Shown one piece after another: positions 6,943 to 62,952 of a DNA stretch of 64,000 nt. How positions within the stretch are numbered: position 1 is the stretch's first letter; each line of letters starts with the position of its first letter. Below the pieces are notes generated by a model, which worked only from the letters and a program-made list of their open reading frames with translations, searched no databases and had not been told where the DNA came from. A program made the position numbers and the translations under genes. This DNA is from Bugula neritina (taxonomy: Eukaryota > Animalia > Bryozoa): the NCBI GenBank assembly GCA_964035545.1, contig OZ037769.1:14042633-14106632 (forward strand). The letters run 5' to 3'.

Positions 6943-7066
<124 letters not shown>

Positions 7067-15100: not shown

Positions 15101-16379
15101 ATTTTGTATTAAATAGCATAGTTTTAGTAGCAATATACACAGCATTGTGCAGGCATAAAGTAATAAACCAAAACCTATAAATAAAAATACAACATCATTG
15201 TTAACTCAAATCAACTATTATGCAGGGGAAGACAACTCTACTACACAGTCAGAACAGTGCTAAGGAGGTTGAGTTTATCTACATACTGGAGCTTTGTTGA
15301 GAATGCTCTGCATTTCATCTCATATGTGTCGAAATTAATAACAAGCAGTTCATTTTACATATATGATATGAGCTGTACCATGGATGTGTCTTAGAATATG
15401 GCTTCTGAAAAATTCTATTTATAGCTATAAATGAACAGCAAATTTCCATGATAATATACTCTAGCGTATCAAAAGGTTCTTTCCATGCAAGCTACATTGA
15501 GCTAGCAGACACGCTTTTAAACATTAAAATTGATGAATAATTTGCATGGCATTTGCATAAAAAGTCGGCATGTTTTCATAAAAACAATTACACAAGTCAG
15601 AAGCACTCTGTGATGGATAGAAATCAATTATTTCAGAATAAAACTATTATGTCATGCAAAATTGTCTTAAATCTACAACTTTTTTATTTTTTACACCAAT
15701 ATGATGTATTTTTAGGATTTTCATTAATTTTTAAACGCTGTATTTCAACCGAGTACCTTGAAGCATTTAACTTAAGACAGCTCCCACTCTGAATATATTA
15801 TAGTACTTCTACAAGGAGTTTGATAGTCAATTAAATTGATAAAAGTGCATAACTATGAGAATTTTGCTATATATTACATTCTCTCATTAAAATTTTTTAA
15901 ATATATAAACTACTCCTATATAATATGTAATTTGGCTTAATATATAGGCAATTGTTTTTGTGCCTGCAATTAAAACTTTTATGCAGAATTGTTTGATTTG
16001 CCAACTAGAATTAAAGGTCTAATTTTACAGTTTAAAGTTTTTAAGATGAAATTTCTCGATTCCAACCATTTATAAGTTGCTTAATTATATATAACTCTAT
16101 TCTCTATAGTTTTAAAGAGCATGTACGCGATCACCTGGTGATTGCAGTTCTATAAAAAATGGTCAGTTGTAACAAGTAATGTAATTGTCTGATCGTATGA
16201 TTATCAATACTTATAAAATGAATGTATCACTCATCAAAGTATATAGAAACATGGTTAGTATCATCTGTATGTTTTGATAAAGTTGATGATGGCAAAAATA
16301 ATTTTGATTTTACTATAAGCATTTAATTTAATGCTTTACTTTGAAGATATTAGGAAGTTTATACATGATTGTGATAAAA

Positions 16380-16525
16380 GTAGTTGCTCTTAGATATATT
16401 TGCATGGTGAGCTAAAATGACACCAATGACTCATTTCTCCCTAAATATATTTGTGAGAGGCGGAAAGCTAATCAGTCAATCAATTAATCAATCAATCAAT
16501 CAATTAATCAATCAATCAATCAATT

Positions 16526-16556
<31 letters not shown>

Positions 16557-16573
16557 GAATCAATGAATCAATG

Positions 16574-16608
<35 letters not shown>

Positions 16609-19600
16609 TCAACAATTAACCAATCAATCAATCAATCGATCGATCAATCAGGCAATCAATCAATTATTTAATCAATCAATCAATATCTTTATCATTTCCA
16701 TGTGGATTCAACTCAAATAATGTTTATAAGTGTTTATAGATGTCTTTCTGCTATAGTTACACCTGACAATTTAAAGGCAGATGCAATGCATAATCACCAT
16801 TATTAGCTTAGTACCATTAAAATTGATTTGAATTTTTAGTACCAATAATAGAAAATTGTAACGCCAAGCAGCATTGTCCAAACACAAAGTTTAGGTTTGT
16901 ATCAAATTAAGTTATATATTAGTTACATATCATCAATTTGAATATATATACTGGGGTATAGTTTTGCTGGTACAATGATTTACAATTATGTTTGGTTTAT
17001 GCTTAAATTTGATGTATATAATGTAGATCTGCTTATGTAATTGATTGATTCATTGCATATCACAAACATGACTTAAAACGTTGCGAAATTCAGTGTAAAT
17101 CCTGGCTATAATATAAATAGGCATGAACAAAAATGAGAGAAAATGTCAAAACTCTAGTCAAAACTCTGTAGGAATATTTAAAATAGAAGCCCATTTAAAA
17201 TATTACAAGATGTCCCAAGAACCTATCTCTGCCCCATGCCCCTCTATATTTGATGGTTCGATATCTTCCAGAAGGCATTGACTCAAAAAGTTATTGATGA
17301 AATGGTCATTGTCTTATACTATATATTTGATGGCAAGTTCTTTAGTGAGTTTCTGAATGTGCAAATCAATGTTTAGATACTCAATCCCAAATTTTGAGCA
17401 ATTTTCAAAAATCTTTCGGATAGCCTTTTTATCACTGGCATAGACACAAGTAAAAATAATAAGTAGACAATAGACGAAGCGGGAGATGATGAAACTTTTG
17501 AATAACATATTTGCTAGAGGTTTAGAGCTAAGACACACAAAATTCTTCACAATATACATTCTTCTTGATACTGTTGTAACTATTGATTTTACATGTTCAT
17601 AAAATTTCAAGTTCTGAACCACTAACACACCAAGGTATCTCACTTTATCAGACAGTACAATGTTAGTTCTATTTAATACGAGAGTAGGGGTACGAGGTTT
17701 AGCACATTGAGCTGAGAACGTCATTTCTTGGGTCTTGCTAAGGTTTAGTAATATATATTAAAATCATCACATTGCGAGAATGCATATACTGGTTAATGTG
17801 AATTATTAAAACACTACAAATCACTTTAGGATGAATTATTATTTAAAACTGAATAAACAGGTTCAAATGTTAATGTCTAATTTAGCAGTCATTTGCTGCG
17901 ATTTTATTGTTGATATTTTATAAAATTCATGCATTACTTTTCTACACAAAATGCTCAACCTTTGATGCAGGAAGTTAGTTTACATAACTTATTTGTTAAA
18001 ACGAGAAACGACAGGGCAATTAATTTATAATGTTTTTTCACGGGCTAAAAAGATAGATTAATTTCACTTGATATTTTTGAATAAGTGCTTATAGCTTATT
18101 TGTGTTTCCAATCAGACAAATTAAAAGTGCATGCAGCCGCTATAAGTTTCAAAAATGCAACCATTGCCGCTTTTTGCAATTTTACAATTAATATTCCATG
18201 CTCAAGTGGCTATATTGTTACATATAAACTTCCTATTATACAATTATAGATGCACTAAATTAATCAAGTGCAGAAAAAAATTACAAACGAAAGTCTTACG
18301 ACTGAAAAATAGAAAATGAGAACTAATTTGTTGATTACTGGTTATTTTTTGTCTAGCCAATGCTAATAATACTATTTTCTCATTATCACATTTTGACGAA
18401 GGGAAAAGAAATGAATTGGAATAAAAAATAACTTGAATTGAAAACTTTTTTTATAAAGAACAGTAAAAAACCGAATATCTTGGCTCAAAGGTTTTGTGAA
18501 TAATAATAACAACAATATTTTTTAGCAAGTGAAATGTTAATTAACTTCTTACTGAAAGCAGTTGCTTTTAGATATATTTGATGAGCTACAAAAACACCTA
18601 TATATGACTCATTTCTCCCTAAATATATTCTGTCAGAGAGAAAGACAGCTAATCAGTCAATGAATCAATGAATCAATGAATCAATGAATCAATCAATCAA
18701 TCAATCAAACAATTAATCAATCAATCAATCGATCGATCAATCGATCAACCAATCAATGATTCAATTAGTCAATTAATCAATTAATCAATCGATCAATCAA
18801 TCAATCAATCAAACAATTAATCAATCAATCAATCAATCAAACAATTAATCAATCAATCGATCGATCAATCGATCAACCAATCAATCATTCAATTAGTCAA
18901 TTAATCAATCAATCAATCAATCGATTAATCAATGAATGTCTATATATATCATTTCAATGTGGATTCAAGTTGAATATTGTTTACAAATGTTTATAGAGGT
19001 CTTTCGTCAAGCGACACCTGACAATTTAAAAGCAGATGCAGTGCCTATCACCATTATTAGTTTGGTACCATTAAAGTTGATTTGAATTTTTAGTACCAAT
19101 AATAGAAAATTGTAACGCCAAGCAGCATTGTCCAAACACAAAATTTAGGTTTGTATCAAGTTAAGTTATAAATTGTTTACATATCATCAATTTGAATATA
19201 TACTGGGATATAGTTTTGCTGGTACAATGATTTACAATTATGTTTGGTTTATGCCTAAGTTTAATGTATTATATAATATTGTAAATATGCTTATATAGTT
19301 ATATATGTGAGAATGCATATACTGATTAATGTGGATTATTAAAACATTGCATATGAATTTAGGATGAATCACTATATTTAAAACTGAATAAAATAGGTTC
19401 AAATGTTAATGCCTAATTTAGTAGCTATTTGCTGCAATTTTATTTTTTATATGGTAGAGTCATGCTTTATTCTTCTAAAGTGTTTACGTCAAGAAATGCT
19501 TAATTTTTGATGCAGAAACTTATCATAGTTTAAAAGTTCATTTAAACTTAAAAAAATAGGGCAACTGATGCATTTTTTGTTCACGGATTTAAAAGATTGA

Positions 19601-20304: not shown

Positions 20305-20319
20305 ATGAAGTGTCTGATT
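20305..20319 (+). CDS. Initiator micro-exon of deaminase copy 1 (MKCLI)
   Basis: ACAATGAAGTGTCTGATT|GTAAGT. Phase-0 splice to AG|21149 gives signal peptide MKCLIGASLLLLAVLQHGLA/DE. Confidence 0.75.
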
Positions 20320-21148
20320 GTAAGTATATTTCAACTATTATTAAAAAATCAAAAGAGACATTCAAAACAAAACATTTTGTCTTTGAAAATTTGCTTCAAA
20401 GTGTTCCAAATAATGTTTTGATTTAGCAAAAAGCTAACGTAAAATATTTTGTCAAACTATGATTTATTGTATTTAAACTAAAAATCCTTTAAAAAGAGAA
20501 CATTTTACAACATTAAGCTCTTATAACTCGTTTAACTTTTTAGCAATTATATATTTATTTTTTGTTTTTTAAAATTCATGTTTTTGGTAGAAATATGTTC
20601 TTCTAAATCATTCAGTAAAAATCTTCATCGTTTTTCATTATTTTGTTGTGCTATATATAATTATAATAACTGGAATAATCTACTTTTTCTATAATTGACT
20701 TACAATTTCCAAAAAAGAAATCTAATGTCAATTAAGTTATTCTCAACATCGGATTTAAAAATGTCCAGCATTAATCCTCACATATAGTTAAAAAAGCTAT
20801 GGTTAACTTTAAAAATATATTACTTTTTTCAGATAAAAGCATTCAACAATAAAATGCATGCTGAAACTTATAAAAATTGGCTGTTTTGCAACAAAATAAT
20901 TTTTAGGATGTGATTCTTATAAAAACTAGAAACTAATATAAACATCGGTTATTCTTTATTTTATGTGAAGTTATTATTCCAATGTAAAAATAATTGCTTC
21001 TTGTCATATTTTAAAAGATAGAAGCTAACTTTGCTATAAAAAACATAAGTTTTGTATTTCATTTAATTATACAAACTTTGCTATAAAAATATATATTTTG
21101 TATTTCATTTAATTATGCAAAATTAACTTTGAAATTATATATATGCAG

Positions 21149-22420
21149 GGTGCATCGCTATTGCTTCTGGCAGTTCTCCAACATGGTTTAGCTGACGAGG
21201 CAGCCAAAACTAAAGCGTTATTTAAAGAGTTGGACAAAGAAACCATTCCTCCAACAATAGTAACACAGCTAGAGACCATTGCTAAAAAACTTCATAGTCT
21301 TTACAAATATCGACCAGTTACTACGTTTAAACAATGGGTTGTTGCTACTCCTTTGGTCATCGATATGGGCACGGATGGCAAAGGTCCAATAAAACTAGAC
21401 AAAGGTTCAGTTATTAAAAAAAACCAGATATTCAGTAATGTCAGGAAGAACAACTACTACCGACGGCCTGACATTTGTGACAACAGCTGTTTGAACACAC
21501 TCAACACTCTCCCAACAAAAATCAAACGCTATCTTGGTGAAGCAAATCAAATTCATACTGAAATACAGATGCTTTACAGACATAACCACAACTTAATGAC
21601 AGATGTGACAAATAAAGATAAAGTTATTCTAGTATATTCCAGGTACATTCCTTGCTCCCAGAATCAAAATAGCCAGGGCGGCGTTTTCCTTGAATGTGCT
21701 GGTGAGATGGCGAACTTTGTTGTTAATAAGAATCCTCAGAAGAACAAGTTTATTGTTTTTTATGAAACTGTACATGACAAAGAGGAAACAGTCATACCAG
21801 TATCTCAGTTGTACATGCAACTTAGTGGTATTATGTCATTTAAGTACAACCCGACCACAAAAAAAATTAAAAAAGATTCCAACTTGCTAGACAAACATAG
21901 TTATAGTTACTTGAGAAAAAAGCCAACATTCCTGCATTTTGGTCGGCCTATTTTGAATGATAACTACAAGACAACAGTTACACAATTGTTCGTCGATTGC
22001 CTTGCTCGAAATCAGTTTATTAAAGTAGCCGGCACACAGCCTCCTAACAGCAAGGAAATTATTTTTGTAGCCACAAAATATCGGCTCTACAAGGCATTTT
22101 CTATGGATGAAGATAAACTGGCTGATCTTTATACAAAAGCTAAAAATTACAAAAAGAATAAGTTTCAAAAAACAGTAGTTGAAGGTTGTTATCAATATGC
22201 CATTAAAATGGCGGCGAATGTACCTAAAAAAAAGGCAATCATTGTGCCTAAAAAAGCTACAAACTATCTCAACTTTCGGGGAACGTCTTTAGCATCCTAT
22301 GATGTCCGGAAACCAAGATTTTTAGGAGATGAGCTACAATTTTGTTATAAATTCATGGACAAGTTAAATGAATATTTTGCTATTCGTAAAGGAATAACAT
22401 GCCAAGAAAAATGGAAATAA
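21149..22420 (+). CDS. Secreted AID/APOBEC-like (SNAD-like) zinc deaminase, copy 1, main exon
   Basis: Intact frame with QWVVATPL, CDNSC, HTE (21554-21562), YSRYIPC-x13-CAGEMANF, KFIVFYE, DCLARN. AATAAA signals at ~22668 and ~22685. Confidence 0.8.
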   Translation, partial: GASLLLLAVLQHGLADEAAKTKALFKELDKETIPPTIVTQLETIAKKLHSLYKYRPVTTFKQWVVATPLVIDMGTDGKGPIKLDKGSVIKKNQIFSNVRKNNYYRRPDICDNSCLNTLNTLPTKIKRYLGEANQIHTEIQMLYRHNHNLMTDVTNKDKVILVYSRYIPCSQNQNSQGGVFLECAGEMANFVVNKNPQKNKFIVFYETVHDKEETVIPVSQLYMQLSGIMSFKYNPTTKKIKKDSNLLDKHSYSYLRKKPTFLHFGRPILNDNYKTTVTQLFVDCLARNQFIKVAGTQPPNSKEIIFVATKYRLYKAFSMDEDKLADLYTKAKNYKKNKFQKTVVEGCYQYAIKMAANVPKKKAIIVPKKATNYLNFRGTSLASYDVRKPRFLGDELQFCYKFMDKLNEYFAIRKGITCQEKWK

Positions 22421-24270: not shown

Positions 24271-24629
24271 TAAGTAATAATGACACAGATAATAATGGTA
24301 CAAATGAAAAAGAAGATAAAAATAGTCTACTTTCAATTCTGGGGATTGAGGGTGTTGGGGGGGGGTTTAGGTTTAGGTTATTAATTATGCTGAGAGCAAT
24401 AATAATAAGTTATAACCTCAGTATCAAGCAATACAAAGATGAATCATCCTAGAATCTTATATACTTACCAAATTCAAGAATTGGCATCAATCTCCAAGTA
24501 GTAGAAGATTGGAGCATTCTCAATAGTCCTCTTATGTGTCAGTAATTATACAAAAGCATTTTGTGTATTGCACTCTGACATATTGAGTGCAGGTACTCAT
24601 ATATGCTATATGAATGCAGTGACATTGTT

Positions 24630-24661
24630 TGTGTGTGTGTGTGTGTGCGTGTGTGTGCGTG

Positions 24662-24756
<95 letters not shown>

Positions 24757-24870
24757 GTGTGCGTGTGTGTGTGTGTGTGTGCGTGTGTGTGTGTGTGTGT
24801 GTGCGTGTGTGTGCGTGTGTGTGCGTGTGTGTGCGTGCGTGTGTGTGCGTGTGTGTGCGTGTGTGTGTCT
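24630..24870. repeat. (GT)n microsatellite with GC interruptions
   Basis: Seen directly; explains the CV/TH repeat ORFs. Confidence 0.95.
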
Positions 24871-25194
24871 GCGTGACTGAGAATGAATGCGTGTGTGTAT
24901 GTGTCCAATTAAAACTATAATGTTTTATACTCTTTTCAATTTTCTGCAAATTTTATATTTAGAATTATAGGAGACAACTTGTGATTTACCATTTAAATGT
25001 TTCAATGCTACTTCCACACTTTCTCATGTTATGCAAGTGCACCCTGATAGCAATAATTACGGAATAACACATCTTTTCTGATTTTAATTCTAAATACTGT
25101 AAAAAACTCACACAATTTTATAGTCACTATTCCTGTGAGACACTCCTGATAGAACAGGTTTTTGTTAAAGCTGGCTAAGCGCTTATTTAAATGA

Positions 25195-25670: not shown

Positions 25671-27827
25671 ATGAAAATCTAATCGTTACTATATTGGCGG
25701 CTTAGAAGTTGACTGTAAGTTTACAATCTTTTAGTATTACACAATTTTTTTCTTTACAAATAATTTATTACTGTTTTTAAACTAAAATTTAAAAATAATT
25801 GGATGGTAGAGTTATTGACAAAAAAAATGTAAAATGTTTGTGTTGAAAGTTGGTGCACAAAAACCTAGCTCACTAATATAAATATTTGACAAGTTCTTCT
25901 CAAATTGTTAAGGTTAGGGCAAATCACAGATTGTGATGACACAATAATTGCATACTAATAATTAGATGTTTAATTGAAACTCTCATTTTGAGTAATTAAA
26001 CTGTAAGTACATAATATGTTCACCTAGCAAAATTAAGTATTTAAAACTTTTTGATTACAGCAAAATTCAAAAGGGATGAAATATAATATAAGTATGCATG
26101 CATATAAAGTTATTAACATTTTTTTATTTATTCTGTTAAACTTGCACTGCAATATACTAGATGCTGTAAATAGCAAGAACCTATGTACTAATTTTTGTAT
26201 GAGGCAGTTTTTGGCAGAAATATAGCATAAATTTAACTTCAATTAGTTTTCATGCTCTTATTATTTTTTGAGCCAGTCGTTTAGTTTTAAGTTCAAAGCC
26301 AGTTGTGAGCTTGTGTTTTATATATTAAGTTTTGTAAATAATGTATATGAAGGGAAGTATCCCAAAAATATTTGTGAATAGTAGAAAAAGTACAATTGGC
26401 TAAATTTCAGCAAATAACTCATCTCTACTTGATAAAAAAGTATTTTATAATTCATTTTTAGCAACGCCTATTGTATAAACTCATAAACCAATATATATAT
26501 GCTCTCTGCCTCAATTTATATTATGCAAACTCTTTATTACAAAAAGCAGTCATCTTGGTGGTGCCAGTTTTGGGGTACAGAAATGCTGTTAGTGAAAAGA
26601 AAAGCCGAGGACCTTGTGAAAATTCTAGACAAAGAAAACCTTGACGCAGATATAAAGAAGGAGCTAGAGGCTGTTGCAGAAAAACTACTTATTAGCTAGT
26701 TTGATGATAGGCCTAATAAGGGAGCTGACCAATGGGTAGCAGCGACTACTTTAAAGGTCGACCTAGGAGCAGATGGCAATGGGCCAATGAAATTGTCTGC
26801 TGATGAACTCGTGCCAAGATATCAAGTGTTTACTAACATCAAAAGCTCCAATGATGATAGAGCTGTAATCTGTAACGACGACTGCATAGCGGAAATTAAA
26901 CACTTCCAACAAAATTAAAGAAAAGAATGTCAGGCGGTCATCAGATTCACACCAAAATTCAAATGCTTTATCGGAATGACCATAACCTTTTTGCAAATGC
27001 GAATGCTAAAGACAAAGTGATTTTAGTCTTCTCACACTACATTCCATGCGCACAAGATCAAGGAGAAGCTGGTGGGACATTTACAGAGTGTGCTGGTGAA
27101 TTGGCAAACTTTCTGGTGAATGATAATCCAAACAACAACAAATTTATTGTGTTTTGGGAGAGTACTCATCGAGCTAAAAGGACTGTGGTTCCAATTGCAC
27201 AGATGTATATGGAGCTCAGTGGCATTGCTTCATTTAATTATGACAAAAAAACAAAGAAGATAAAAAAAGATCCAAGCCACTTCAAGCGCCCAGAGTATTT
27301 TAGGAACAACTCTATGCTTATTAGACTAGGCCGTCCGCTGATGTCCAACGAGTTTAAATTCACAGAGACTCAGCTTTTGGTTGACTGCATAGCCCGAAAT
27401 GACTTTTTTATGGAAACAACTAATAATAGAATATGCAAAGAAATTCAGTTTCTAGCAGCAAAAAGACAACTTTACAAAGCATTCCCCAATGGGGGCTGGG
27501 AGCTATGGCACCATAAGAGACCGTCTTGCTAAAAATTACGGCAATGACAACGTTCCTTTCAAAAAGGCTGTTGTTGAAGCGTGTATTTTGTACGCAAACG
27601 CCATGTCTATGGATGAAAATAAAAAAAATTTACTTGTTCAGGACCATACCACGGATTATCTTAATTTCTACGGCAAGAGTGTGTTGAAGGATTATTGTCA
27701 AAATCCAAAATTTCCTCAAGATTATCTTCAATATTGCAACAGTTGTTTGGCAGCAGTTGAAAGATATTTTCAAATTCCTCAACAAAAGCAAATTCAATGT
27801 CAGCTGAAAAATCCTCGTCAACACTAA
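25671..27827 (+). pseudogene. Secreted AID/APOBEC-like deaminase, copy 2, pseudogene
   Basis: Full-length homology across several frames (KAVILVVPVLG.., DQWVAATTL, CNDDC, HTK, FSHYIPC-x13-CAGELANF, DCIARN, DYLNFYG). Lesions: frameshifts near 26598, 26900 and 27488; TAG at 26697-26699; catalytic Glu to Lys at 26954-26956; acceptor apparently CAG to CAA at 26540-26542. Tentative degenerate exon 1 at 25671-25684. Confidence 0.85.
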
Positions 27828-30800
27828 ACACTAAACACTGACATGTTCAACCAACTTTAGAAATGTCAAATTCCTAACCCTAAATCGATGATTTAAAATA
27901 TAAATATAAATGATCAAATAGTACAGCATGCCATGTTACTAGGTTTACTATCTATGTGTTTTTGTAAAACTTTTAATTATTGCAATTAATAAAATAAAAA
28001 CATGAGCTAACCTAAGAAAGGATTTGTATTTTGAGTTACATCACAAAATTCATTTTCTATTGACTTGAATCAAAGTCCTATAATATCTGAAAACTGCAGT
28101 AATTATGTAAACAGCATACATGTGCAAATTTGCAATTTACTTGTTCACTATTGAACTTTTAGATTCTATAGCATTTTATTTACTTCCCACTGTATTATGA
28201 GGCAAACATGGCTCTCTGTTTATTAAATTCTAACTCTACAAATTAAAAGCCAAAACAGCTTAAAATTACCTGTTGCGATTTGAAACACTTTGCAAATTAA
28301 CCCATAACATAGAAAACAGAGCTGAGAGTTGCAATTGTCAAGAGTGAATAACTCCTCTGTTGTAGTTGTATAGTTGATTATCTAAGGCCTCAGATTAAAA
28401 TAAATGTGTACGTATAAACAATGGGATGAGCATCTTTGCTATAAGAATCATGAGAAACTGCATTAACTTACATTGATCATAAATTTATGCAAAGTCCTAT
28501 AATTATTCATCACAATAATAATATACTTCATAACAGTTGTCTAAAATTTAGTGCAAAAGAAGTTGATAACACTGCTAGATTTAAAAAAAATATTATTAAG
28601 CAATTCCATTTAATTTCGCATCTCCTTTTACCAACTATAATATCTCATAAGTTTTTCTTTGTTTAAAAATACGAGACGCTGCATTTTTTAGTAAATGTGA
28701 ATTTTACTGAAATATATTTATAATACTTCAACACTTAAATTTTTTACTGGCCATGACTCATGTTAAGCTAAGCCATGGCAGCAGAAGCAAAAAAACATAA
28801 TTTTATATATATTTGTAAATTAATCACAATAGTAAAATTTAATCTAAAAACATGTGTAAACTGCATGCAGATGCTTGTGAAAGCATTGCACCATATAATG
28901 GTTTTGATTTTCTGGCACATCCTTTTTATTACAACGGTCTTTCTCAAAGTGTGAAAATAAAAATTTATTTATAGTAGTTTTTACACGAATATCATAATTA
29001 CACTTCAAAGTATTTCCGTTTATATACAAGCTATTACCAATATTCTAAAAATTTGCAGTCATCAATTTATATTTTTGTCATAAGTGTAATTAATGAGTGA
29101 ATTAGATCTTAGAATTGATAGTTCGAGTTCTTATTAAAGTATTGATTATAAATATACACAACTTCAACTAAATTATAATCTGCCATTTTTGTGCAAAAAT
29201 AAGCCTGGTTTTTCAAAAAACTTTCTCATTTCTTATAGCTTGACTTTAGTTAAACTCTTCCAGTGTCAGCTTTTCATCTGATTACTAGTCTATATCAATT
29301 TCCAACCCTCACTCTCTTAGTGTGACAACTTTCAACATGTCTGTGTTCTTCAGTTTTATCCACAACCACTCTGAGTCAGCATCACTCTAATTGCGCACTT
29401 TTTCTTTCAACAATTATATATTCACCTTAGCTATTTTCTAACAATTATTTGGCTTATTTTTTCTCAAATACAAATCGGTGAGTTTTTGCTCAAACTCCAA
29501 ACTCAAATCAATACGCCCCTGGTTTTCAGATTGGTTTCCTTATTTTCTATCAACTGAGTTGAATGTAATATTTTCTGCTATTCACATCTTTATTCTGTTT
29601 CCAGCTTTTCTTCTATACTAAAAGCCTTCATGTCATAGCTCTAAGCTGTTGAATTGTATAGTAGTTCAAAGTTGCATGAATCCATTCGAATATACTTCCT
29701 TGCAGTAGCTAAAATGTATATATACATTTTATTATAGGCCTACATATACGCAGCATGGGTTATTCGTCATAGTTTCTTTGACAAATAAAAAAAAATCACC
29801 ATGCAGTCTGATAATATTCTATAGCTCTTTTACCTTAATGACTTTGATCAACTGCACCTTGTTGAAGCTCTCTCATTTTTTAAACCCTAGTCTATGGCCC
29901 AGAATATAGTTTTTAAAACTTAGTACTGCAAAGTCATTCCTCATTCTGAAACTTCACAATTCAATGTATTAATATCTATCTGCATGTTATATTATGATTA
30001 ATAAGTTTTAATTTTAATACAAAATTCCACAACACCACTTTTTGATGACCATTATAGGCTATGCCACCAGTAAAAGTGAATTGTCAGATATATATGATTG
30101 TCACCCTAAAATGTTTTTCATGGAATCACAGATGTGTTTCAAAATTTGTTATTTATAATGTTATAGCTGGAAATGTTTGAATCAATGCTTTGATATTTAC
30201 AGCAAGCAAGGCATGAGGGTTTTGTATATCTTTATACGTCTACCATAACTGAGCAGAAGCTACAACATGCATGAAGGCACAACGCAACATTAAGGATCTC
30301 AGTTACTTTGTAATACAAGTCTAACACTCTCATCCCAACTTGAAACTGTAAAATACTTCATGCAATTTGTCAGGTTCATGATTTGCAAATGGGGCTTACG
30401 GTGGTTTCAGTCAGGATTAATTGTAAATGAATACATTTGGAAAAATCACTAATGGCTAAGAAAAACTAAATTGACTAATGACATAAATCAAATTATTTTG
30501 TATGTTGACCACACTTGAATGTGTTTCAAAAAGATTAATAATTACAAAGCCTTGTTCTAATATTATGTGTGATTCCAGCCAAAATTAGAAGCTTTTGGGA
30601 TGGTTGAGGAGTAATACAACAATGATAATTATGTATCTTTTGGAATGTTGAAAATATTTCTAAAAATTTAGAAATGAAGCATGATAAATGAAAAAAGAAT
30701 AACTATAATATGTTAACCTGCTATACAGTCTGATAGAGAAACAGAAAAGCAAACATACATATTCATGAGGTATATACACAGCATATATATGGCATGTATA

Positions 30801-30853
30801 TGACATATATATATACACGACATCTATATTATATATCATGTGCATATTATATA

Positions 30854-30857
<4 letters not shown>

Positions 30858-30928
<71 letters not shown>

Positions 30929-31000
30929 TACATATATACATATACACATATACATATATACATATATACATATATACATATATACATGTATACATGTATA
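30858..31000. repeat. (TA)n / (TATACA)n microsatellite upstream of the copy 3 promoter
   Basis: Seen directly. Confidence 0.95.
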
Positions 31001-31228
31001 TATATTTTATTTTTTTTATTTACATTTTTTATGAAATCCTAACTTTTAACTATATAATTATTAATGATACCATCATTATACCAATACTGTAGACAAGCTT
31101 GTATAGCACAACGCCATGCTATTAACATGCACAACGCTAGAGTTATCGTTGAGCTATCTATAAAAGCAGTTGCTTTAGAGGTAATTTTACATTCTAGTTT
31201 TAAGTTATTCTGCAGGATTCATCGCAAA

Positions 31229-31249
31229 ATGACTAATACAAGACTTTTG
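31229..31249 (+). CDS. Initiator micro-exon of deaminase copy 3 (MTNTRLL)
   Basis: AAAATGACTAATACAAGACTTTTG|GTGAGT with TATAAAA at 31159. Splices in phase 0 to 32333, giving MTNTRLLVFLFTAIIIVHRGNS. Confidence 0.75.
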
Positions 31250-32332: not shown

Positions 32333-33787
32333 GTCTTTCTGTTCACCGCTATCATCATTGTGCATCGCGGTAATTCAACTCCCGAAGAAGAAAAGGCAAA
32401 AGCTGATGATTTGATGAAGGAGCTTGACAAACCGCATGCAGAGATTCGTGCAACTCTGATGACTCAGTTGAAAAGAATTGCAGGGGAGCTGAGGGCATAT
32501 AATGGAGAACGCCCAAACCTTGACTATCTTCAGTGGGTAGTGGCTACTCCATTAGATATAGAGAGAAATACTGAAAGTGGTGCAGAACCGTTGATATTAA
32601 CAAAGCAAGACGTCGAAGTCGACAAACATATTTACAGTAACTTCAAGAAAAGGGAAAATACACCAAAAAAGAGAAATGACAGAAAAAAATATTGCAATGC
32701 TAATTGCATTAAAGAAATAGAAAAACTTCCAACTACAATAAAAAGAGATAACAAAGAAATGGGTAATGGTCACGTGATACACACCGAAATACAAATGCTA
32801 TGCAGAAAGAAGGAAGACAACATATTACATGATGAAGCTAACAAGAACAAAGTAATACTAGTTTACTCAAAGTACATCCCATGTTCTCAAAATCAAAATT
32901 CTCAAGGTGGAACGTTTGTAGAATGTGCCGCAGAGTTGGCAAACTTTATGGCTAATCATAATCCGAACAAAAATAAATTGATTGTGTTTTATGAAACTCA
33001 ACACACTGCCGTGGATAACAACGATCGGGATGTACAAGTTTCATCTGTGGTTGGAGTGTCACAACTTTACATGGAGATGAGTGGCATAGTAGCTTTTAAG
33101 TACACGCCAGAGAATGAAGATGAATCAGGGGGTCCGAATCCACCGAGCGTTTTGCAGAGAGATCCTCAGCTTGTTGAAAAAGCTACATACTTTCGCAAAT
33201 ATCCAAAATTTATTAATTTGGGACGACCTCTTATAAACAATGATTATAAAGCAACTATTACCCAAATTTTCATTGACTGCCTAGCTCGAAACAACTTTGT
33301 AACCCCAAAGACTAGCAAAGAATCAACGCTTGATGTACAATTCATAACTGCTAAGCATTTTCTTTCTCTGATCCCTTATGCTGAAGAAAATGACATCGAC
33401 AAATTATTTGAAATGGCTAATCAAGCAGACAGAATAACAAATAAACAAGACGCATTCATTAAAGGGTGTTACACATTTGCAAAAGATATGTCAACAGATG
33501 ACATCAAAGGAGGCCTTATAGTTCCGGAGAAGGTGGGGGATTACCTCACTTTTAATGGCTACGCTACAAAATTGAATAAATCAAAGAAGATCAATGAGCT
33601 TTCTGTAAACAGTGAAAGAGACGCCTGTGAACCATTCCTAGCTGCTCTGAAGAAATTTTTTAAGCGTGAACGTTATTTGACACCTGTATGCACGGTGAAA
33701 GATTATTCTAATAGATATTCTAATGGCAGAGGTAACAGAAGCAAGGGTAGAAATGGGGGCAGAAGAGGACGCCGACGATATAAGTAG
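32333..33787 (+). CDS. Secreted AID/APOBEC-like zinc deaminase, copy 3, main exon; Arg/Gly-rich tail
   Basis: Acceptor TTTTAG|GTC. Intact ORF with HTEIQML, YSKYIPC-x13-CAAELANF, KLIVFYE, DCLARN; ends GRGNRSKGRNGGRRGRRRYK. Confidence 0.8.
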   Translation, partial: VFLFTAIIIVHRGNSTPEEEKAKADDLMKELDKPHAEIRATLMTQLKRIAGELRAYNGERPNLDYLQWVVATPLDIERNTESGAEPLILTKQDVEVDKHIYSNFKKRENTPKKRNDRKKYCNANCIKEIEKLPTTIKRDNKEMGNGHVIHTEIQMLCRKKEDNILHDEANKNKVILVYSKYIPCSQNQNSQGGTFVECAAELANFMANHNPNKNKLIVFYETQHTAVDNNDRDVQVSSVVGVSQLYMEMSGIVAFKYTPENEDESGGPNPPSVLQRDPQLVEKATYFRKYPKFINLGRPLINNDYKATITQIFIDCLARNNFVTPKTSKESTLDVQFITAKHFLSLIPYAEENDIDKLFEMANQADRITNKQDAFIKGCYTFAKDMSTDDIKGGLIVPEKVGDYLTFNGYATKLNKSKKINELSVNSERDACEPFLAALKKFFKRERYLTPVCTVKDYSNRYSNGRGNRSKGRNGGRRGRRRYK

Positions 33788-38397: not shown

Positions 38398-39819
38398 ATC
38401 TCAGTGTTGATCACTGTAGCCATTGTACGCCGCTGTGTTACACATTCTGAAGAAAATGCAAAAGCTAATGACTTGATGAAGGAGCTTGACAAACGGCATG
38501 CAGAGATTCGTGCAACTCTGATGACTCAGTTGAAAAGAATTGCTGGTGAGCTGAGAAGATATTATCATCAACGTCCAAACAAAGAATATAAGCAGTGGGT
38601 AGTCGCTACTCCATTAATTATAACGAGAAATACTGAAAATGGTAAGGACTCTTTGACTTTGACAGCGCAAAGTGTGGAAGAAGATAAACATATTTACAGC
38701 AATTTCAAAAGACTTCATAATCAAAATGATGAATTAAGAAGAAAATATTGTGATGAGAATTGTATTCAACGAATAGAAGCACTTACAACTAAAATAAAGA
38801 AACATCAGAGAAAACAAATGAGTGAGAACAATATAGTACACACAGAAATGCAAATGCTGTACAGAGATAAAGTTGACAATATACTACACAATAATGCTAA
38901 CAAAGGCAAAATAATACTAGTTTACTCTAAATACATTCCGTGTTCTCAAAATCAAAATTCAAATGGTGGAACGTTTGTGGAATGTGCCGGGGAGTTGGCA
39001 AACTTTATGGCTAATAACAATCCCAATGGAAATAAGCTAATCGTGTTTTACGAAACTAAACATGAAGCAGTAAATAAACACGATGGAGTTAATGTTTCAT
39101 CCGTACTTGGAGTTTCCCAACTTTACATGGAGATGAGTGACATAGTCGCGTTTAAATACACCCCAGAAGATAGAAGCAATGAGAGTAAATTAAAAAGAGA
39201 TCCTTTGCTTGTTGACATGGCCACATATTTTCGTGAGTACCCAATGTTTCTCCATTTGGGTAGACCTCTTATGAATAAAAAATGCAAAGCAACTGTTACC
39301 CAAATATTCATTGACTGCCTAGCTCGAAATAGGTTTGTAAAGTTGACAACGAATCTGATTGAAAACTCTAAAGTACGATTCATAGCTGTTAAATATTTTC
39401 TTTCTGAACTTTCACATGCAAAGGAAAATAATCTTGAAGATTTGGTTACTGCAGCTAAGAACGGTAAAAATCCAACTGATCAACAACGTGCTATTGTTGG
39501 AGGATGCCATGTTTTTGCCAAAGAAATGATTGAAGATAGTATCAAGAAACAGTACATTAAAACTGAGCGGAAGAAAACTGAATATCTCAGTTTTGATGGG
39601 ACTGCTGCAAAAACTACTGAATATTTTGATAAAGATGAGAAAGAAACTTGTAGAGCATATCTCAAAGTTCTAAATGAGCATTTTAATAGAAAAACTAGTA
39701 AAACAAATGTGTGTTTGGTAGAGCCACTTTTTAATGGTGATGATTATGAGAGGGATAAAGAGAATATTATGAGTGATAAAAAAACTGAAAATAATAATCA
39801 TATCTATGACGAATTATAG
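38398..39819 (+). CDS. Secreted AID/APOBEC-like zinc deaminase, copy 4, main exon (intact ORF but own exon 1/promoter deleted)
   Basis: Acceptor TTTTAG|ATC; HTEMQML, YSKYIPC-x13-CAGELANF; ends IYDEL*. Upstream DNA lacks the segment homologous to ~44748-46165. Confidence 0.7.
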   Translation: MSVLITVAIVRRCVTHSEENAKANDLMKELDKRHAEIRATLMTQLKRIAGELRRYYHQRPNKEYKQWVVATPLIITRNTENGKDSLTLTAQSVEEDKHIYSNFKRLHNQNDELRRKYCDENCIQRIEALTTKIKKHQRKQMSENNIVHTEMQMLYRDKVDNILHNNANKGKIILVYSKYIPCSQNQNSNGGTFVECAGELANFMANNNPNGNKLIVFYETKHEAVNKHDGVNVSSVLGVSQLYMEMSDIVAFKYTPEDRSNESKLKRDPLLVDMATYFREYPMFLHLGRPLMNKKCKATVTQIFIDCLARNRFVKLTTNLIENSKVRFIAVKYFLSELSHAKENNLEDLVTAAKNGKNPTDQQRAIVGGCHVFAKEMIEDSIKKQYIKTERKKTEYLSFDGTAAKTTEYFDKDEKETCRAYLKVLNEHFNRKTSKTNVCLVEPLFNGDDYERDKENIMSDKKTENNNHIYDEL

Positions 39820-46787: not shown

Positions 46788-48209
46788 ATCTCAGTGTTGA
46801 TCACTGTAGCCATTGTACGCCGCTGTGTTACACATCTTGAAGAAAATGCAAAAGCTAATGACTTGATGAAGGAGCTTGACAAACCGCATGCAGAGATTCG
46901 TGCAACTCTGATGACTCAGTTGAAAAGAATTGCTGGTGAGCTGAGTGAGTATTATAATCAACGTCCAAACCGTGCCTTTACTCAGTGGGTAGTGGCTACT
47001 CCATTGAATATAAAGAGAAATACTGAAAATGGTAAGGACTCTTTGACTTTGACAGCGCAAAGTGTGGAAGAAGACAAACATATTTACAGCAATTTCAAAA
47101 GACTTCATAATCAAAATGATGAATTAAGAAGAAAATATTGTGATAATGACTGTATTCAGCAAATAGAAACACTTACAACTAAAATAAAAAAACATCCGTG
47201 GAAACAAATAGGTGAAAACAATATAGTACACACAGAAATGCAAATGCTGTACAGAGATAAAGTTGACAATATACTACATAATGAAGCTAATAAAAATAAA
47301 GTAATACTAGTTTACTCAAAGTATATTCCGTGTTCTCAAAATCAAAATTCAAATGGTGGAACGTTTGTGGAATGTGCCGGGGAGTTGGCAAACTTTATGG
47401 CTAATAACAATCCCAATGGAAATAAGCTAATCGTGTTTTATGAAACTAAACATGAAGCAGTAAATAAACACGATGGAGTTAATGTTTCATCCGTACTTGG
47501 AGTTTCCCAACTTTACATGGAGATGAGTGGCATAGTCGCGTTTAAATACACCCCAGAAGATAGAAGCAATGAGAGTAAATTAAAAAGAGATCCTTTGCTT
47601 GTTGACATGGCCACATATTTTCGTGAGTACCCAATGTTTCTCTATCTGGGTAGACCTCTTATGAATAAAGAATGCAAAGCAACTGTTACCCAAATATTCA
47701 TTGACTGCCTAGCTCGAAATAGGTTTGTAAAGTTGACAACGAATCTGATTGAAAACTCTAAAGTACGATTCATAGCTGTTAAATATTTTCTTTCTGAACT
47801 TTCACATGCAAAGGAAAATAATCTTGGAGATTTGGTTACTGCAGCTAAGAACGGTAAAAATCCAACTGATCAACAACGTGCTATTGTTGAAGGATGCCAT
47901 GTTTTTGCCAAAGAAATGCTTGAAGATAGTATCAAGAAACAGTACATTAAAACTGAGCAGAAGGAAAATGATTATCTCAGATTTGATGGAACTGCTGCAA
48001 AAACTACTGAATATTTTGATCAAGATGAGAAAGAAACTTGTAGAGCATATCTCAAAGTTCTAAATGAGCATTTTAATAGAAAAACTAGTGAAAAAAATGT
48101 GTGTTTGGTAGAGCCACTTTTTAATGGTGATGATTATGAAAGGAATAAAGAGAATAGTATGAATGGTAAAAAAATTGAAAATAATAACCAAATCTATGAC
48201 GAATTATAG
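46788..48209 (+). CDS. Secreted AID/APOBEC-like zinc deaminase, copy 5, main exon
   Basis: Recent duplicate of copy 4. Signal MTHLRLLISVLITVAIVRRCVT; intact HTE/PC-x13-C; ends IYDEL*. Confidence 0.8.
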   Translation: MSVLITVAIVRRCVTHLEENAKANDLMKELDKPHAEIRATLMTQLKRIAGELSEYYNQRPNRAFTQWVVATPLNIKRNTENGKDSLTLTAQSVEEDKHIYSNFKRLHNQNDELRRKYCDNDCIQQIETLTTKIKKHPWKQIGENNIVHTEMQMLYRDKVDNILHNEANKNKVILVYSKYIPCSQNQNSNGGTFVECAGELANFMANNNPNGNKLIVFYETKHEAVNKHDGVNVSSVLGVSQLYMEMSGIVAFKYTPEDRSNESKLKRDPLLVDMATYFREYPMFLYLGRPLMNKECKATVTQIFIDCLARNRFVKLTTNLIENSKVRFIAVKYFLSELSHAKENNLGDLVTAAKNGKNPTDQQRAIVEGCHVFAKEMLEDSIKKQYIKTEQKENDYLRFDGTAAKTTEYFDQDEKETCRAYLKVLNEHFNRKTSEKNVCLVEPLFNGDDYERNKENSMNGKKIENNNQIYDEL

Positions 48210-54218: not shown

Positions 54219-54380
<162 letters not shown>

Positions 54381-56230: not shown

Positions 56231-57577
56231 GTTGTGCTGTTGGTCACCACTACCCTTTTAAGTTATGCTAATGCAGATGCTGCCTTTGAAAAAGCTAAAG
56301 CTGACGAATTGATGAAACGGCTGGACAAAAAAACTATTTCGAAGAATCTGATGAGGCAGTTGAAAAGAATTGCTGGTGAACTGAGCTGGTATTATTCTCA
56401 ACGGCCAAACCCGGACTATGCCCAATGGGTAGTGGCAACTCCTTTGGACATACAAAAAACTGGTAACAGCGATACGGATCCGTTAATTTTGACTAAACAA
56501 GATGTGGTTACTGAACACATTTACAGCAATTACAAAAAGAAAGACCCTGAAAATGACACCAAAAATGAGGAGAGAAAAAAGTTCTGCGATAATCAGTGTC
56601 TTAATAGAATAAAAAAACTTCCAACCAAAATTAAAAAAAATAGAGCGGTAATTGCCGATAGCACCGTTATACACACTGAAATCCAAATGTTATGCAGGAA
56701 AAAGGAAGACAATATACTTAAAAACGAAGCTAATAAGAACAAAGTAATACTAATTTACTCCAAGTATATTCCGTGCTCTCAAAACCAAAATTCTCAAGGT
56801 GGAACGTTTGTGGAATGCGCAGGAGAACTGGCAAACTATGTAGTTGACAAAAAAAAAAATGCTAATGGAAACAAGTTTATTGTTTTTTACGAAACTACAC
56901 ATGAAGCAACAAATGAAAACGATGGAGTAAAAGTTTCATCAGTGCTTGGGGTTTCCCAACTTTACATGGAGATGAGTGGTATTGTAGCTTTTAAATATAC
57001 GTACACATCAACTAGTGATAGGTTAGTAAGAGACCCTTTGCATATAGACAGAGCAGACTACATCCGTAAGTATCCAAAGTTTCTTAGTCTAGGACGTCCT
57101 CTCATCAGTGATAATTACAAGGCAACTTCTATTCAGATGTTTATTGACTGTCTTGCCCGAAATAGATTTCTAGGCCCAGTGACAAAAAAAGTGGATAAAT
57201 TGGAAGTGGAATTTATAACTACTAAACACTTTCTCTCGGAGTATGTTGCCAAAGATAGAAGAGACTTAAAGAAACTGTATAAAAAAATGATAGACGTTGA
57301 AAATATAAAAGCACGTGTATATGTTACTATCACAGGCTGCTATGTTTATGCTAAGAAGATGTCTGCGGATAGCATAAAAAGTGATCTTATTGTGAGAGAC
57401 AAGGAAACTGATTACCTAAACTTTAATGGCTACTACACAGAACTGAATCAAGCAAAGACTACTAGCGACTTTACTTCAGAAACAAAAAAAAATTATTGCA
57501 CTCTTTTCCTCACAAGTCTCAAAAAGTTTTTCAAACGCCAAACTGATTTACAACCTGTATGCTCAGTTGGCAATTAA
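56231..57577 (+). CDS. Secreted AID/APOBEC-like zinc deaminase, copy 6, main exon
   Basis: Acceptor TTTTTAG|GTT. Signal MAYLRLCVVLLVTTTLLSYANA/DA; HTEIQML, YSKYIPC-x13-CAGELANY, KFIVFYE, DCLARN. Confidence 0.8.
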   Translation, partial: VVLLVTTTLLSYANADAAFEKAKADELMKRLDKKTISKNLMRQLKRIAGELSWYYSQRPNPDYAQWVVATPLDIQKTGNSDTDPLILTKQDVVTEHIYSNYKKKDPENDTKNEERKKFCDNQCLNRIKKLPTKIKKNRAVIADSTVIHTEIQMLCRKKEDNILKNEANKNKVILIYSKYIPCSQNQNSQGGTFVECAGELANYVVDKKKNANGNKFIVFYETTHEATNENDGVKVSSVLGVSQLYMEMSGIVAFKYTYTSTSDRLVRDPLHIDRADYIRKYPKFLSLGRPLISDNYKATSIQMFIDCLARNRFLGPVTKKVDKLEVEFITTKHFLSEYVAKDRRDLKKLYKKMIDVENIKARVYVTITGCYVYAKKMSADSIKSDLIVRDKETDYLNFNGYYTELNQAKTTSDFTSETKKNYCTLFLTSLKKFFKRQTDLQPVCSVGN

Positions 57578-58948: not shown

Positions 58949-59159
<211 letters not shown>

Positions 59160-61617: not shown

Positions 61618-62952
61618 GTTGTTTTGGTGCTTTTAAACACAATTTGGAGAAGTTGCACTGCAGATGACGATCAACAAAAAAAATTAACTAGAAAATTGAT
61701 GAAAGAACTTGATAAAGATCATGAAAACATAGATACTGATATAATGCAAAAACTGAAAAGAATTGCATCAGAATTATTTGCTTATTCCAATCATTATCGA
61801 AAAAAGTCATTTAACACGAAAAATGGTAAAAAGATTAACCAGTGGGTAGTGGCGACCCCCTTAAAAATTACAAAAACACAAGAAGGCAAGTTTATTTTGG
61901 AAAAAGAAGTTGTAGATGAGAAAAATGACATCTACTCTAACATTTTTTATAACAAAAATATTGGAAATGCTAAGTGTGATTCCACGTGCATCAATAAGCT
62001 AAATACCCTCCCAACAAGAATAAAACCAGAAATCGGAAATGGAAATTCTATACATACTGAAATACAGATGATGTACAAACACACTAAATCTATTTTGAAA
62101 GAAAAAAAATATAAAAATAGAATAATATTGGTTTACTCTACATACATTCCTTGCTCTCAGAATCAGTTTCACAATGGTGGTGTTTTTCTAGAATGCGCAG
62201 GAGAAATGGCAAATTTTGTTGTAGATAAAACTGTAAATGAAGGGAACAATCGATTTATTGTTTTTTATGAAACTGTACATAAGAAGAAGAACACAGTAAT
62301 TGAGGTATCGCAGCTCTACATGGAACTGAGTGGGATAATAGCTCTAAAGTACAACCCAAACACCGGTGACTTACGGAGAGATAAAAGACTTTTGCCAGAA
62401 TTCACAGACCACTTGAGAGATCAGCCAATGTTTCTAAGACTAAGCCGCCCTCTGTTGAATAGTACTTACCAAGCGACTGGTACTCAACTGTTTGTTGACT
62501 GTTTGGCTCGTAATAGTGTTAAAAATCATCCGCCAGAAAAAAACGTGCAATTCACAGTTGCAAAGTACCAACTCTACCACGATTTTTCTATGGGCACGAA
62601 CAAAATTGTAGATGAAAATGAAATGGACAAAGCTTTAATAGCAGCTTTGAAGAATACAGATCAATCCAAAACGCAAAAGGCTTATGCTTTAAGTTGTGGT
62701 GTGTTTGCTAAAGCTATGTTTAAAGACAAAATTAAACATGATTCGATTATAGTTGAAAAGCAGACGACTGACTATTTTTCATTTGACTCTATAAATATTG
62801 CTGCATTGACGCCTAATGAACAAATTCAAGAAAATAAATTTACTTTTAACACAAAAGATGAAATGAAAGCATGCGTTATTTCTCTTCGTAGAGCTAGAAA
62901 CCGTTTCGGATTTGACAAAACAGATCAGCTAAGTTGTAAACTTAAATCTTAA
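61618..62952 (+). CDS. Secreted AID/APOBEC-like zinc deaminase, copy 7, main exon
   Basis: Acceptor CTTTAG|GTT. Signal ..VVLVLLNTIWRSCTA/DD; QWVVATPL, CDSTC, HTEIQMM, YSTYIPC-x13-CAGEMANF, RFIVFYE, DCLARN. Confidence 0.8.
   Translation, partial: VVLVLLNTIWRSCTADDDQQKKLTRKLMKELDKDHENIDTDIMQKLKRIASELFAYSNHYRKKSFNTKNGKKINQWVVATPLKITKTQEGKFILEKEVVDEKNDIYSNIFYNKNIGNAKCDSTCINKLNTLPTRIKPEIGNGNSIHTEIQMMYKHTKSILKEKKYKNRIILVYSTYIPCSQNQFHNGGVFLECAGEMANFVVDKTVNEGNNRFIVFYETVHKKKNTVIEVSQLYMELSGIIALKYNPNTGDLRRDKRLLPEFTDHLRDQPMFLRLSRPLLNSTYQATGTQLFVDCLARNSVKNHPPEKNVQFTVAKYQLYHDFSMGTNKIVDENEMDKALIAALKNTDQSKTQKAYALSCGVFAKAMFKDKIKHDSIIVEKQTTDYFSFDSINIAALTPNEQIQENKFTFNTKDEMKACVISLRRARNRFGFDKTDQLSCKLKS

Follow-up and report, generated by a model that had tools for sequence, protein, structure and literature searches.

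A 64,000-nucleotide stretch of contig OZ037769.1 of the bryozoan Bugula neritina (hereinafter, the window) contains seven same-strand paralogues of one deaminase gene within about 42 kb. The copy considered here starts at position 21143 of the forward strand and encodes 425 amino acids (aa). Behind its deaminase core, the protein carries an additional C-terminal region, called here the module, which is a separate domain, all-helical by prediction and provided with four cysteines, that was found only in the Bugula deaminase family. The module is evolutionarily constrained, although less so than the core.

The deaminase core and the module behind it

The core is a very divergent deaminase. A full-length AlphaFold2 (AF2) model of the 425 residues, built on a 24-row alignment, reached a mean predicted local distance difference test score (pLDDT) of 86.1 and a predicted template modelling score (pTM) of 0.87. 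When this model was compared with the PDB by Foldseek, the first 24 matches listed were all APOBEC3 or AID proteins (E 1.3e-3 to 9e-3, probability 0.75–1.0), and VIA-align gave Z 9.4–8.2 to deaminases in general among the matches listed; superpositions on other deaminases begin at model residue 36–55. The catalytic HTE (138–140) is situated at the start of helix 139–145, which places HxE in helix 2, and both H138 and E140 are kept in 22/22 covering sequences of the 24-sequence family alignment. The PCxnC part of the zinc centre was found too, with C171 in 23/23 sequences, P170 in 22/23 and C185, which opens helix 185–195, in 24/24. The 13-residue insert of this motif is an unusually long spacer modelled with low confidence (pLDDT <50 at 177–179); loop-5 inserts are reported for some clades of AID/APOBEC-like deaminases (AADs) in the consulted part of PMC5889660. 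According to DSSP, the elements follow in the order strand 161–168, helix 185–195, strand 202–209, helix 218–227 and strand 231–236, with helix 4 between strands 4 and 5, and this order fits the helix-4 division as described there (PMC5889660).

None of the 24 family members reached the cut-off of the Pfam AAD models. Sub-threshold hits with E 0.0025–0.17 were obtained for NAD1 in three members (best E 0.0025), SNAD4 in two and SNAD1, APOBEC_N and APOBEC4 in one each, and the family profile had no match among PDB sequences at E<=10. By language-model features, the core (residues 18–250) is nearest to an unnamed molluscan cluster (0.92) and to the SNAD1/SNAD2 clusters (0.90), all of 206–226 aa; as a lead only, this length suggests that similar cores exist elsewhere without such a module. 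Loop 7, which connects strand 4 and helix 4 (family alignment columns 331–351, e.g. 33000–33040 of the window), differs in length, the copies starting at 32360, 38404, 46794 and 56234 having 9–10 residues more than the 21143 and 61624 copies. In APOBEC3s, this loop determines target-sequence preference. An ADAR-like large deaminase domain was also considered, ADARs likewise having a helical C-terminal half, and was rejected, as ADARs gave Z 5.3–6.3 and did not appear among the Foldseek matches listed.

A first-pass annotation of this DNA, made from the sequence alone, had placed an uncharacterised module at 21940–22420. Position 21940 turned out to be that of the F..GRP motif (residue ~266), and the region past the last core strand begins at 21848 (residue 236) and comprises 190 aa. 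This region lies outside the canonical deaminase fold: all 50 deaminase superpositions listed in a second-look VIA search end at model residue 235–252, and in a VIA search of 48,161 chains with the full model most of the deaminases listed end at 229–270. VIA ranges show the first and last aligned residues only. In the wide search, 5 of the 50 superpositions listed, namely those on full-length A3G, A3H, CDAT8, an ADAR2 fusion and blasticidin-S deaminase, extend to 352–382, and helix 340–358 may therefore take the place of the C-terminal helix of these enzymes. The prediction that the module is probably helical was borne out by AF2, which gave seven helices both in the full-length model and for residues 236–425 modelled alone (25 rows, whole homologues aligned to the window module; pLDDT 83.7, pTM 0.81). 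The first 40 residues of the isolated module were the least certain (pLDDT 61–73). ESMFold2 complexes of core (18–250) and module (251–425), obtained in two runs without alignments and with an uncertain partner fold, gave 0.00 and are evidence neither way.

Relatives of the module were looked for by sequence and by structure. A profile of the six window modules, run against 1.84 billion representative proteins at E<=0.001 with no word filter, collected 12 matches, all of them full-length members or gene-call fragments of the Bugula family, and among these the module was never joined to another N-terminal domain. The same profile gave no hit at E<=10 among PDB sequences by hmmsearch, and Pfam recognised no family over the module, the sole hit being DUF1492 at residues 314–388 of the 56234 copy with E 0.49. 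Foldseek, the check proposed by the first-pass annotation, found no PDB match for the module alone (best E 1.5, probability 0.04); the best E in BFVD was 0.77. VIA found nothing at Z>=5 in the 48,161 chains, with the FADD death domain as the best match (Z 3.9, 78 residues, root-mean-square deviation 4.5) and assorted death-fold, membrane and designed helical proteins among the further ones listed, and its second look at 269 Foldseek candidates reached at best Z 2.5. Thus, the region did not come out as simply a part of the deaminase fold or as a well-known domain of unrelated function, with a reservation for helix 340–358. DUF7168 (PF23771), suggested for the module by an Atlas feature score of 0.89 at low recognition, was rejected, since no Pfam hit to it was obtained at E<=1 in the seven window proteins or the 24 members.

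Four motifs had been claimed for all copies, and each of them does occur once in every one of the six intact copies by regular expression; the seventh copy is broken. The motifs Q(L/I/M)(F/L)(V/I)DC(L/I)ARN, C..(F/Y)A..M and (D/N/E)Y(L/F).F stand as written, and F..L(G/S)RPL was slightly too strict: the 21143 copy reads FLHFGRPI, and the corrected form is F..(L/F)(G/S)RP(L/I). Neither HxE nor PC was met in any of the six modules, in agreement with the claim that a second catalytic motif is absent. The cysteines of the 21143 copy are 112 and 116 (Cx3C), 171 and 185 (the PC...C zinc ligands), 286, 349, 401 and 420. Six conserved non-catalytic cysteines, including the N-terminal Cx3C and the two terminal ones, had been counted before, and these are indeed present in 6/6 intact copies and in every covering homologue (22/22, 22/22, 23/23, 20/20, 20/20 and 20/20 in the 24-sequence alignment). 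Among the six window modules, 28 columns are invariant, including D245, R258, R268, R289, N290, K312 and K362, and they cluster in GRP(L/I) and TQxFxDCLARN at the module start.

The module is conserved far above chance, with a mean pairwise identity of 0.40 among the six window copies and 0.38 over 24 sequences; in the core, the mean is 0.60. The rate of nonsynonymous substitution (dN) is 1.5–2.8 times higher in the module than in the core in 14/15 paralogue pairs, and where the synonymous rate (dS) is unsaturated, their ratio, omega, amounts to 0.09–0.31 in the core and 0.31–0.73 in the module. The exception is the young tandem pair 38404–39819 and 46794–48209, with dS of 0.152 in the core and 0.018 in the module; the low module value suggests gene conversion of the 3' half, and the module dN/dS of 1.66 in this pair comes from very few changes.

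Predicted signal peptides, candidate first exons and tails

The proteins likely enter the secretory pathway, as judged from a predicted signal peptide split by a phase-0 intron and from (Y/H)DEL tails. In 6/6 intact copies, a hydrophobic stretch comes immediately after a pyrimidine-rich tract with AG, in one and the same phase; translation could also start from the in-frame ATG at 21143. A first exon was sought in the 2.5 kb upstream of each acceptor as ATG, 2–15 sense codons and a GT[AG]AG[TA] donor in phase 0. Candidates were obtained for 5/6 copies at a distance of 0.8–1.1 kb, one each for four copies and two overlapping ones for the fifth, and in their DNA three of these mini exons are clearly homologous. 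Over the whole window, 14 sites pass this filter on the forward strand, counting these six, and 8 on the reverse strand. No first exon was found for the 38404 copy even with a relaxed donor, and the DNA upstream of this copy is unlike that upstream of its near-twin at 46794. When upstream DNA was compared between paralogues by blastn, only the 38404/46794 pair aligned, plus one 49-nt match. The joined exon 1 and exon 2 start, judged by eye, would give in 5/6 copies a basic n-region, a hydrophobic core of 10–14 residues and small residues at –3/–1, the positions to which the –3/–1 rule for signal-peptide cleavage refers; an example is MAYLRLC joined to VVLLVTTTLLSYANA, with cleavage predicted before DAAFEK. 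About 100 nt upstream of the MTNTRLL exon, at 31127–31216 (+), there is a stretch with 63% identity over 30 aa to the annotated N-terminus of B. neritina EB796_007870 (MHNAGVIVELSIKAVALE...), which could be explained by an alternative first exon or by an annotation artefact in that protein.

While the module is constant, the tails after the last cysteine differ between the paralogues: they consist of 3–8 residues, or are Arg/Gly-rich, or Asn-rich with a (Y/H)DEL end, or long and of low complexity. Four family members end in (Y/H)DEL, namely the 38404 (39805–39816) and 46794 (48195–48206) copies as IYDEL and the collection proteins P0007 and P0014 as HDEL; the fragment P0020 ends in HGEL. We take the (Y/H)DEL end to resemble a signal for retrieval to the endoplasmic reticulum (ER), and by their ends some paralogues would stay in the ER lumen and others be exported. 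We still infer secretion, as did the first-pass annotation, though with better support than before, since signal peptides are predicted in 5/6 copies and four members carry (Y/H)DEL. In the 32360 copy, the last cysteine is followed at 33692–33784 (+) by a 31-residue tail rich in Arg, Gly and Asn (...GRNGGRRGRRRYK), and EB796_007870 has a tail of the same kind; that of the 32360 copy could be an RGG-like nucleic-acid-binding or polycationic tail.

Possible roles of the module

In our opinion, there is about an even chance that the module is an accessory part fixed rigidly on the catalytic domain, likely stapled by disulfides, which extends the substrate- or target-binding face of the enzyme and is not a detachable delivery domain. 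The full-length pTM argues for a fixed position, because loosely placed halves would hardly reach 0.87. A constant module, tails and substrate-side loops that vary, the absence of any separation from the core and a predicted fixed position together point to an integral accessory domain. Taken with the superpositions reaching helix 340–358 and the hypervariable tails, the pTM also suggests that substrate or target binding, or auto-inhibition, fits better than detachable delivery. Placed beside the active-site loops, where it would sit on this reading, the module would contribute to the recognition of nucleic acid or of another target. The six spare cysteines would form three disulfides, plausibly from Cx3C, in the loop-3 insert, to C286 and C349, and from C401 to C420. 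Small Tim proteins provide a known case of twin Cx3C disulfide staples. The hypervariable tails after C420, absent, Arg/Gly-rich, or Asn-rich with (Y/H)DEL, would set the destination of each paralogue.

Several points weigh against this picture. RibD/Rib2 and dCMP deaminases score Z 9.4–8.6 in VIA against 9.2 for APOBECs, so that APOBECs are not separated from them. The isoelectric point of the module varies from 8.0 to 10.0 and its charge excess from +1 to +22, and the 32360 copy has 28 K+R against 27 D+E; the module is thus not uniformly basic, and a plain function in nucleic-acid binding becomes less convincing. That the isolated module scores low in structure comparisons may be due in part to a non-globular, wrap-around shape and not to a new compact fold. 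The AF2 alignments hold only 24–25 sequences, the named ones from one species, and the confidence values may therefore flatter the model. Finally, the six cysteines could instead bind a second zinc, and other AAD clades are known to carry metal-chelating inserts (PMC5889660, consulted part).

Of the functions proposed by the first-pass annotation, that of a delivery or receptor-binding moiety seems unlikely to us, while it agrees with a part of the data. On this view, it would serve a toxin-like secreted mutator as its B-part: by attaching to a surface molecule of microbes, parasites or competitors, it would bring the deaminase inside the target cell. This agrees with the likely secretion of the proteins, with the Arg-rich tails of some paralogues and with a module that evolves about twice as fast as the core, as is expected of a part facing a changing target; besides, the authors of PMC5889660, in the part consulted, draw a parallel between secreted AADs on the one hand and bacterial polymorphic toxins and Crinkler effectors on the other. 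However, the pTM and the superpositions to helix 340–358 suggest an integral part, the module never stands alone or on another protein (12/12 profile matches belong to the same family) and no known binding domain was matched by Foldseek, VIA or BFVD. The (Y/H)DEL paralogues, moreover, would stay in the ER and yet retain the module.

It is quite unlikely, in our estimate, that the module is only a lineage-specific expansion of the C-terminal helices 5 and 6 of deaminases serving stability, with cysteines that may bind a structural zinc. The five of the 50 wide-search superpositions listed that reach 352–382 speak for it, as at least one module helix may replace the canonical C-terminal helix, and so do the metal-chelating inserts of other AAD clades (PMC5889660, as above) and the unusually low structural scores of the isolated module, which fit a non-autonomous shape. 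Yet a region of 190 residues and seven helices exceeds helices 5 and 6 about fourfold in size, 50/50 superpositions listed in the second look stop by residue 252, and the module folds confidently alone in AF2. The seven charged or polar residues among the 28 invariant columns also suggest more than packing.

An auto-inhibitory cap, also raised by the first-pass annotation, is in our view rather improbable. Such a cap would lie over the active site or the substrate groove and be released by a trigger (proteolysis, reduction, pH or a ligand), and it would protect the RNA and DNA of the producer in transit. The docking predicted by AF2 is tight, the module always accompanies an intact HxE/PC..C centre, and a conserved basic-Asp stretch (IKKD, LKRD, LRRD, LVRD, LQRD) after strand 5 falls within the least confident part of the isolated module. 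This stretch, however, is modelled as strand 241–244 pairing beside strand 5 and not as an exposed linker, and routing by a signal peptide would already separate the enzyme from cytosolic and nuclear nucleic acids. Cleavage of the proprotein-convertase type at the basic-Asp stretch was rejected, as it is modelled as a strand and P4 is not consistently basic.

A death-fold-like adaptor, with helices 276–365 as a six-helix bundle akin to Death, DED, PYD and CARD used for protein–protein assembly, is hardly credible: FADD is the best VIA match of the module, about 10 of the 50 matches listed are death-fold (Z 2.5–3.9) and the same region scores Z 4.2 in the full model, but all these values are <5, well below the level the tool deems common for helical models, Foldseek found no match, no Death-family Pfam hit was obtained at E<=1 in 24 members, and Death-fold domains are cytosolic whereas the Bugula proteins look secretory.

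A bolder reading, to which we give a small chance, takes the module for a new fold by which a secreted mutator deaminase becomes a self-targeting immune weapon; it would attach to foreign cells or virions and offer their nucleic acid to the active site. The tails would sort such enzymes to the ER lumen ((Y/H)DEL), to export or to association with nucleic acids or membranes (Arg/Gly-rich), as an extracellular invertebrate counterpart of the APOBEC3 arsenal.

Known deaminases and the gene array

Secreted AADs are known from vertebrates, sponges and slime moulds. PMC5889660, in its consulted part, describes SNAD1–4 and also secreted AADs from dictyosteliids that end in a four-Cys domain; models of SNAD1 with its C-terminal three-Cys cluster are given in PMC11004436, published in 2024, whose abstract states that no knowledge was available on the protein characterization, biochemistry and catalytic activity of these deaminases. 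Bugula and bryozoans are not mentioned in the main text of PMC5889660 or the part of its supplement searched, and no literature on bryozoan APOBECs or B. neritina deaminases was found among the titles and abstracts listed.

SNAD1/2, the nearest named clusters to the Bugula core by language-model features, resemble it in the signal peptide (predicted in Bugula), the HxE and PC..C centre, lineage-specific tandem expansion and extra cysteines proposed to form disulfides. In both, the canonical helices 5/6 are replaced; strand 5 is followed in SNAD1/2 by a neomorphic hairpin and in Bugula directly by the short strand 241–244. SNAD1/2, however, are single domains of ~200–230 aa with a cysteine cluster in strands 5–7, whereas about 190 helical residues are added in Bugula. 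The SNAD1/2 pattern of a cysteine where strand 5 ends, CxxC in strand 6 and a cysteine in strand 7 was not found, the 21143 copy having no cysteine at 186–285. The 13-residue insert in the zinc motif and Pfam SNAD hits that remain sub-threshold also set the Bugula proteins apart. On its sequences, the family appears to share the concept of secreted AADs, yet it lacks the SNAD1/2 cysteine pattern and stays below the Pfam cut-offs.

The Bugula module is about four times larger than the extensions described for secreted AADs in the consulted parts of PMC5889660 and PMC11004436. The dictyosteliid proteins, which were compared by description (PMC5889660), have the same architecture with a C-terminal four-Cys domain in very distant organisms; as the Bugula module profile has no match outside its own family, the two C-terminal domains are not detectably related. 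APOBEC3/AID proteins, the best Foldseek matches, share the order strand 4–helix 4–strand 5 and score Z 9.2–8.3 in VIA over 126–147 residues, but they are cytosolic or nuclear, have no signal peptide, possess a PCx2–4C zinc motif, end ~40 residues after strand 5 and show no sequence-level match to the Bugula family (0 PDB hits at E<=10). Bacterial polymorphic-toxin deaminases, such as DddA and SsdA-type effectors of the type VI secretion system, are likewise exported deaminases with non-catalytic trafficking parts, a functional analogy taken from the consulted part of PMC5889660. Their deaminase is a C-terminal cassette behind N-terminal trafficking domains, whereas the extra domain of Bugula is C-terminal, and their structural scores to the Bugula model are low (Z 4.2–4.9).

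The results add an AAD clade not found in the literature searched and a large, confidently modelled accessory domain that has no match in the libraries compared. One 64-kb array offers natural experiments, in which the same core and module are combined with different sorting tails and loop-7 lengths. If the module holds a substrate or target, it would help to find out what secreted deaminases act upon, and the protein, as a compact deaminase-plus-binding unit, could be of interest for enzyme engineering as well. Should the module turn out to be no more than a stabilising elaboration, the family is a small addition to the known fast-evolving immune-type deaminases.

Six intact open reading frames (ORFs) of 425–475 aa start on the forward strand at 21143, 32360, 38404, 46794, 56234 and 61624; the positions of their features are given in the table below. 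The seventh copy (~26595–27827, +) is broken: its N-terminal part, read in a different frame, runs into a stop, HTE is changed to HTK, motifs 1–2 are in frame 26900–27532 and motifs 3–4 with the terminal cysteines in frame 27456–27827. It is either a pseudogene or the product of assembly indels; P0002 (401 aa) in the protein collection is its intact counterpart. A search of a collection of 5.8 billion protein clusters gave 18 matches, of which the named ones are three hypothetical B. neritina proteins. Family members have 35–89% identity to the 21143 copy in the 24-sequence alignment and, beyond the named ones, are metagenome or assembly proteins. The most divergent paralogue, B. neritina EB796_019972 (P0018/P0027/P0028; another contig), with 35% identity in this alignment, retains all six spare cysteines and has a Pro/His/Lys-rich low-complexity stretch of ~90 residues before the first helix and a basic tail of 90 residues.

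Features of the deaminase genes in the window, with the evidence for each
Feature	Positions	Strand	Details and basis
Studied ORF	21143..22420	+	425 aa; one of seven tandem paralogues
Candidate mini exon 1, 21143 gene (MKCLI)	20305..20319	+	GTAAGT donor, phase 0; strict ATG...donor scan
Predicted intron, 829 nt	20320..21148	+	acceptor ...ATGCAG; pyrimidine tract and AG before hydrophobic stretch
Remaining predicted signal peptide (GASLLLLAVLQHGLA)	21149..21193	+	predicted cleavage before DEAAK; hydrophobic core, small residues at –3/–1
N-terminal helical extension and helix 1, residues 18–60	21194..21322	+	helices 19–30, 37–56; AF2 secondary structure
Deaminase core, residues 61–235	21323..21847	+	strand 1 to strand 5 (end SGIMSFKY, 228–235); Foldseek, VIA, sub-threshold Pfam
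Cx3C (C112, C116)	21476..21490	+	insert between strand 2 and HxE helix; 22/22 sequences; model helices 108–111, 114–120
Catalytic HTE (H138, E140)	21554..21562	+	alignment, regular expression
PC-x13-C zinc motif (P170, C171...C185)	21650..21697	+	Cys listing, AF2, alignment
C-terminal module, residues 236–425	21848..22417	+	predicted strand 241–244; helices 251–259, 279–289, 303–318, 323–334, 340–358, 360–365, 396–411; Cys 286, 349, 401, 420
C286	21998..22000	+	most conserved motif, TQLFVDCLARN; alignment, regular expression
C349 (GCYQYAIKM)	22187..22189	+	helix 340–358; alignment, regular expression, AF2
C401	22343..22345	+	last helix (396–411); alignment, AF2
C420, last conserved Cys	22400..22402	+	paralogue tails diverge after it; alignment
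Module remnant, broken copy	27242..27827	+	two reading frames; Cys listing, ORF list
Candidate mini exon MTNTRLL	31229–31249	+	donor scan
Module, 32360 paralogue	33104..33784	+	Arg/Gly-rich tail; alignment, motifs, Cys
Module, 38404 paralogue	39160..39816	+	tail end IYDEL; alignment, motifs, Cys
Candidate mini exon MTHLRLL	45696–45716	+	donor scan
Module, 46794 paralogue	47550..48206	+	tail end IYDEL; alignment, motifs, Cys
Candidate mini exon MAYLRLC	55196–55216	+	donor scan
Module, 56234 paralogue	56999..57574	+	4-residue tail; alignment, motifs, Cys
Candidate mini exon MMPSIKLI	60780–60803	+	donor scan
Module, 61624 paralogue	62353..62949	+	4-residue tail; alignment, motifs, Cys

The window is AT-rich (GC 0.25–0.35). 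No immunity-like gene was noticed among the listed stop-to-stop ORFs of >=90 aa, most of which were not searched, and Pfam gave nothing above cut-off for the neighbouring ORFs at 10423–10929 (+), 17314–17757 (–) and 243–521 (–). The first of these, a frame of 168 aa, contains two copies of a Pro/Gln/Ala/Tyr-rich repeat (EKAPEYSQPPPAAPYQQAPAGSYQQ...) and a Cys-rich end, CGCCSDIGGC. The second, of 147 aa, overlaps a spot at 17500–17680 where the contig depth in three sequencing runs is 20–130 times that of neighbouring DNA (2,700–17,500, against ~135 for run X1); this spot probably represents a repeat of high copy number or what is left of a transposon. The depth of X1, ~135, is even over genes and spacers, so that this run behaves as DNA, and no splice joint was seen in the runs. 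Long microsatellites of the types (TG/CA)n, (TA/TATG)n, (TA)n and (GA/TC)n lie between the paralogues at 24505–24952, 30660–31092, 54077–54492 and 58941–59277; they are visible as low-complexity open frames and as a spike in GC skew at 24–26 kb.

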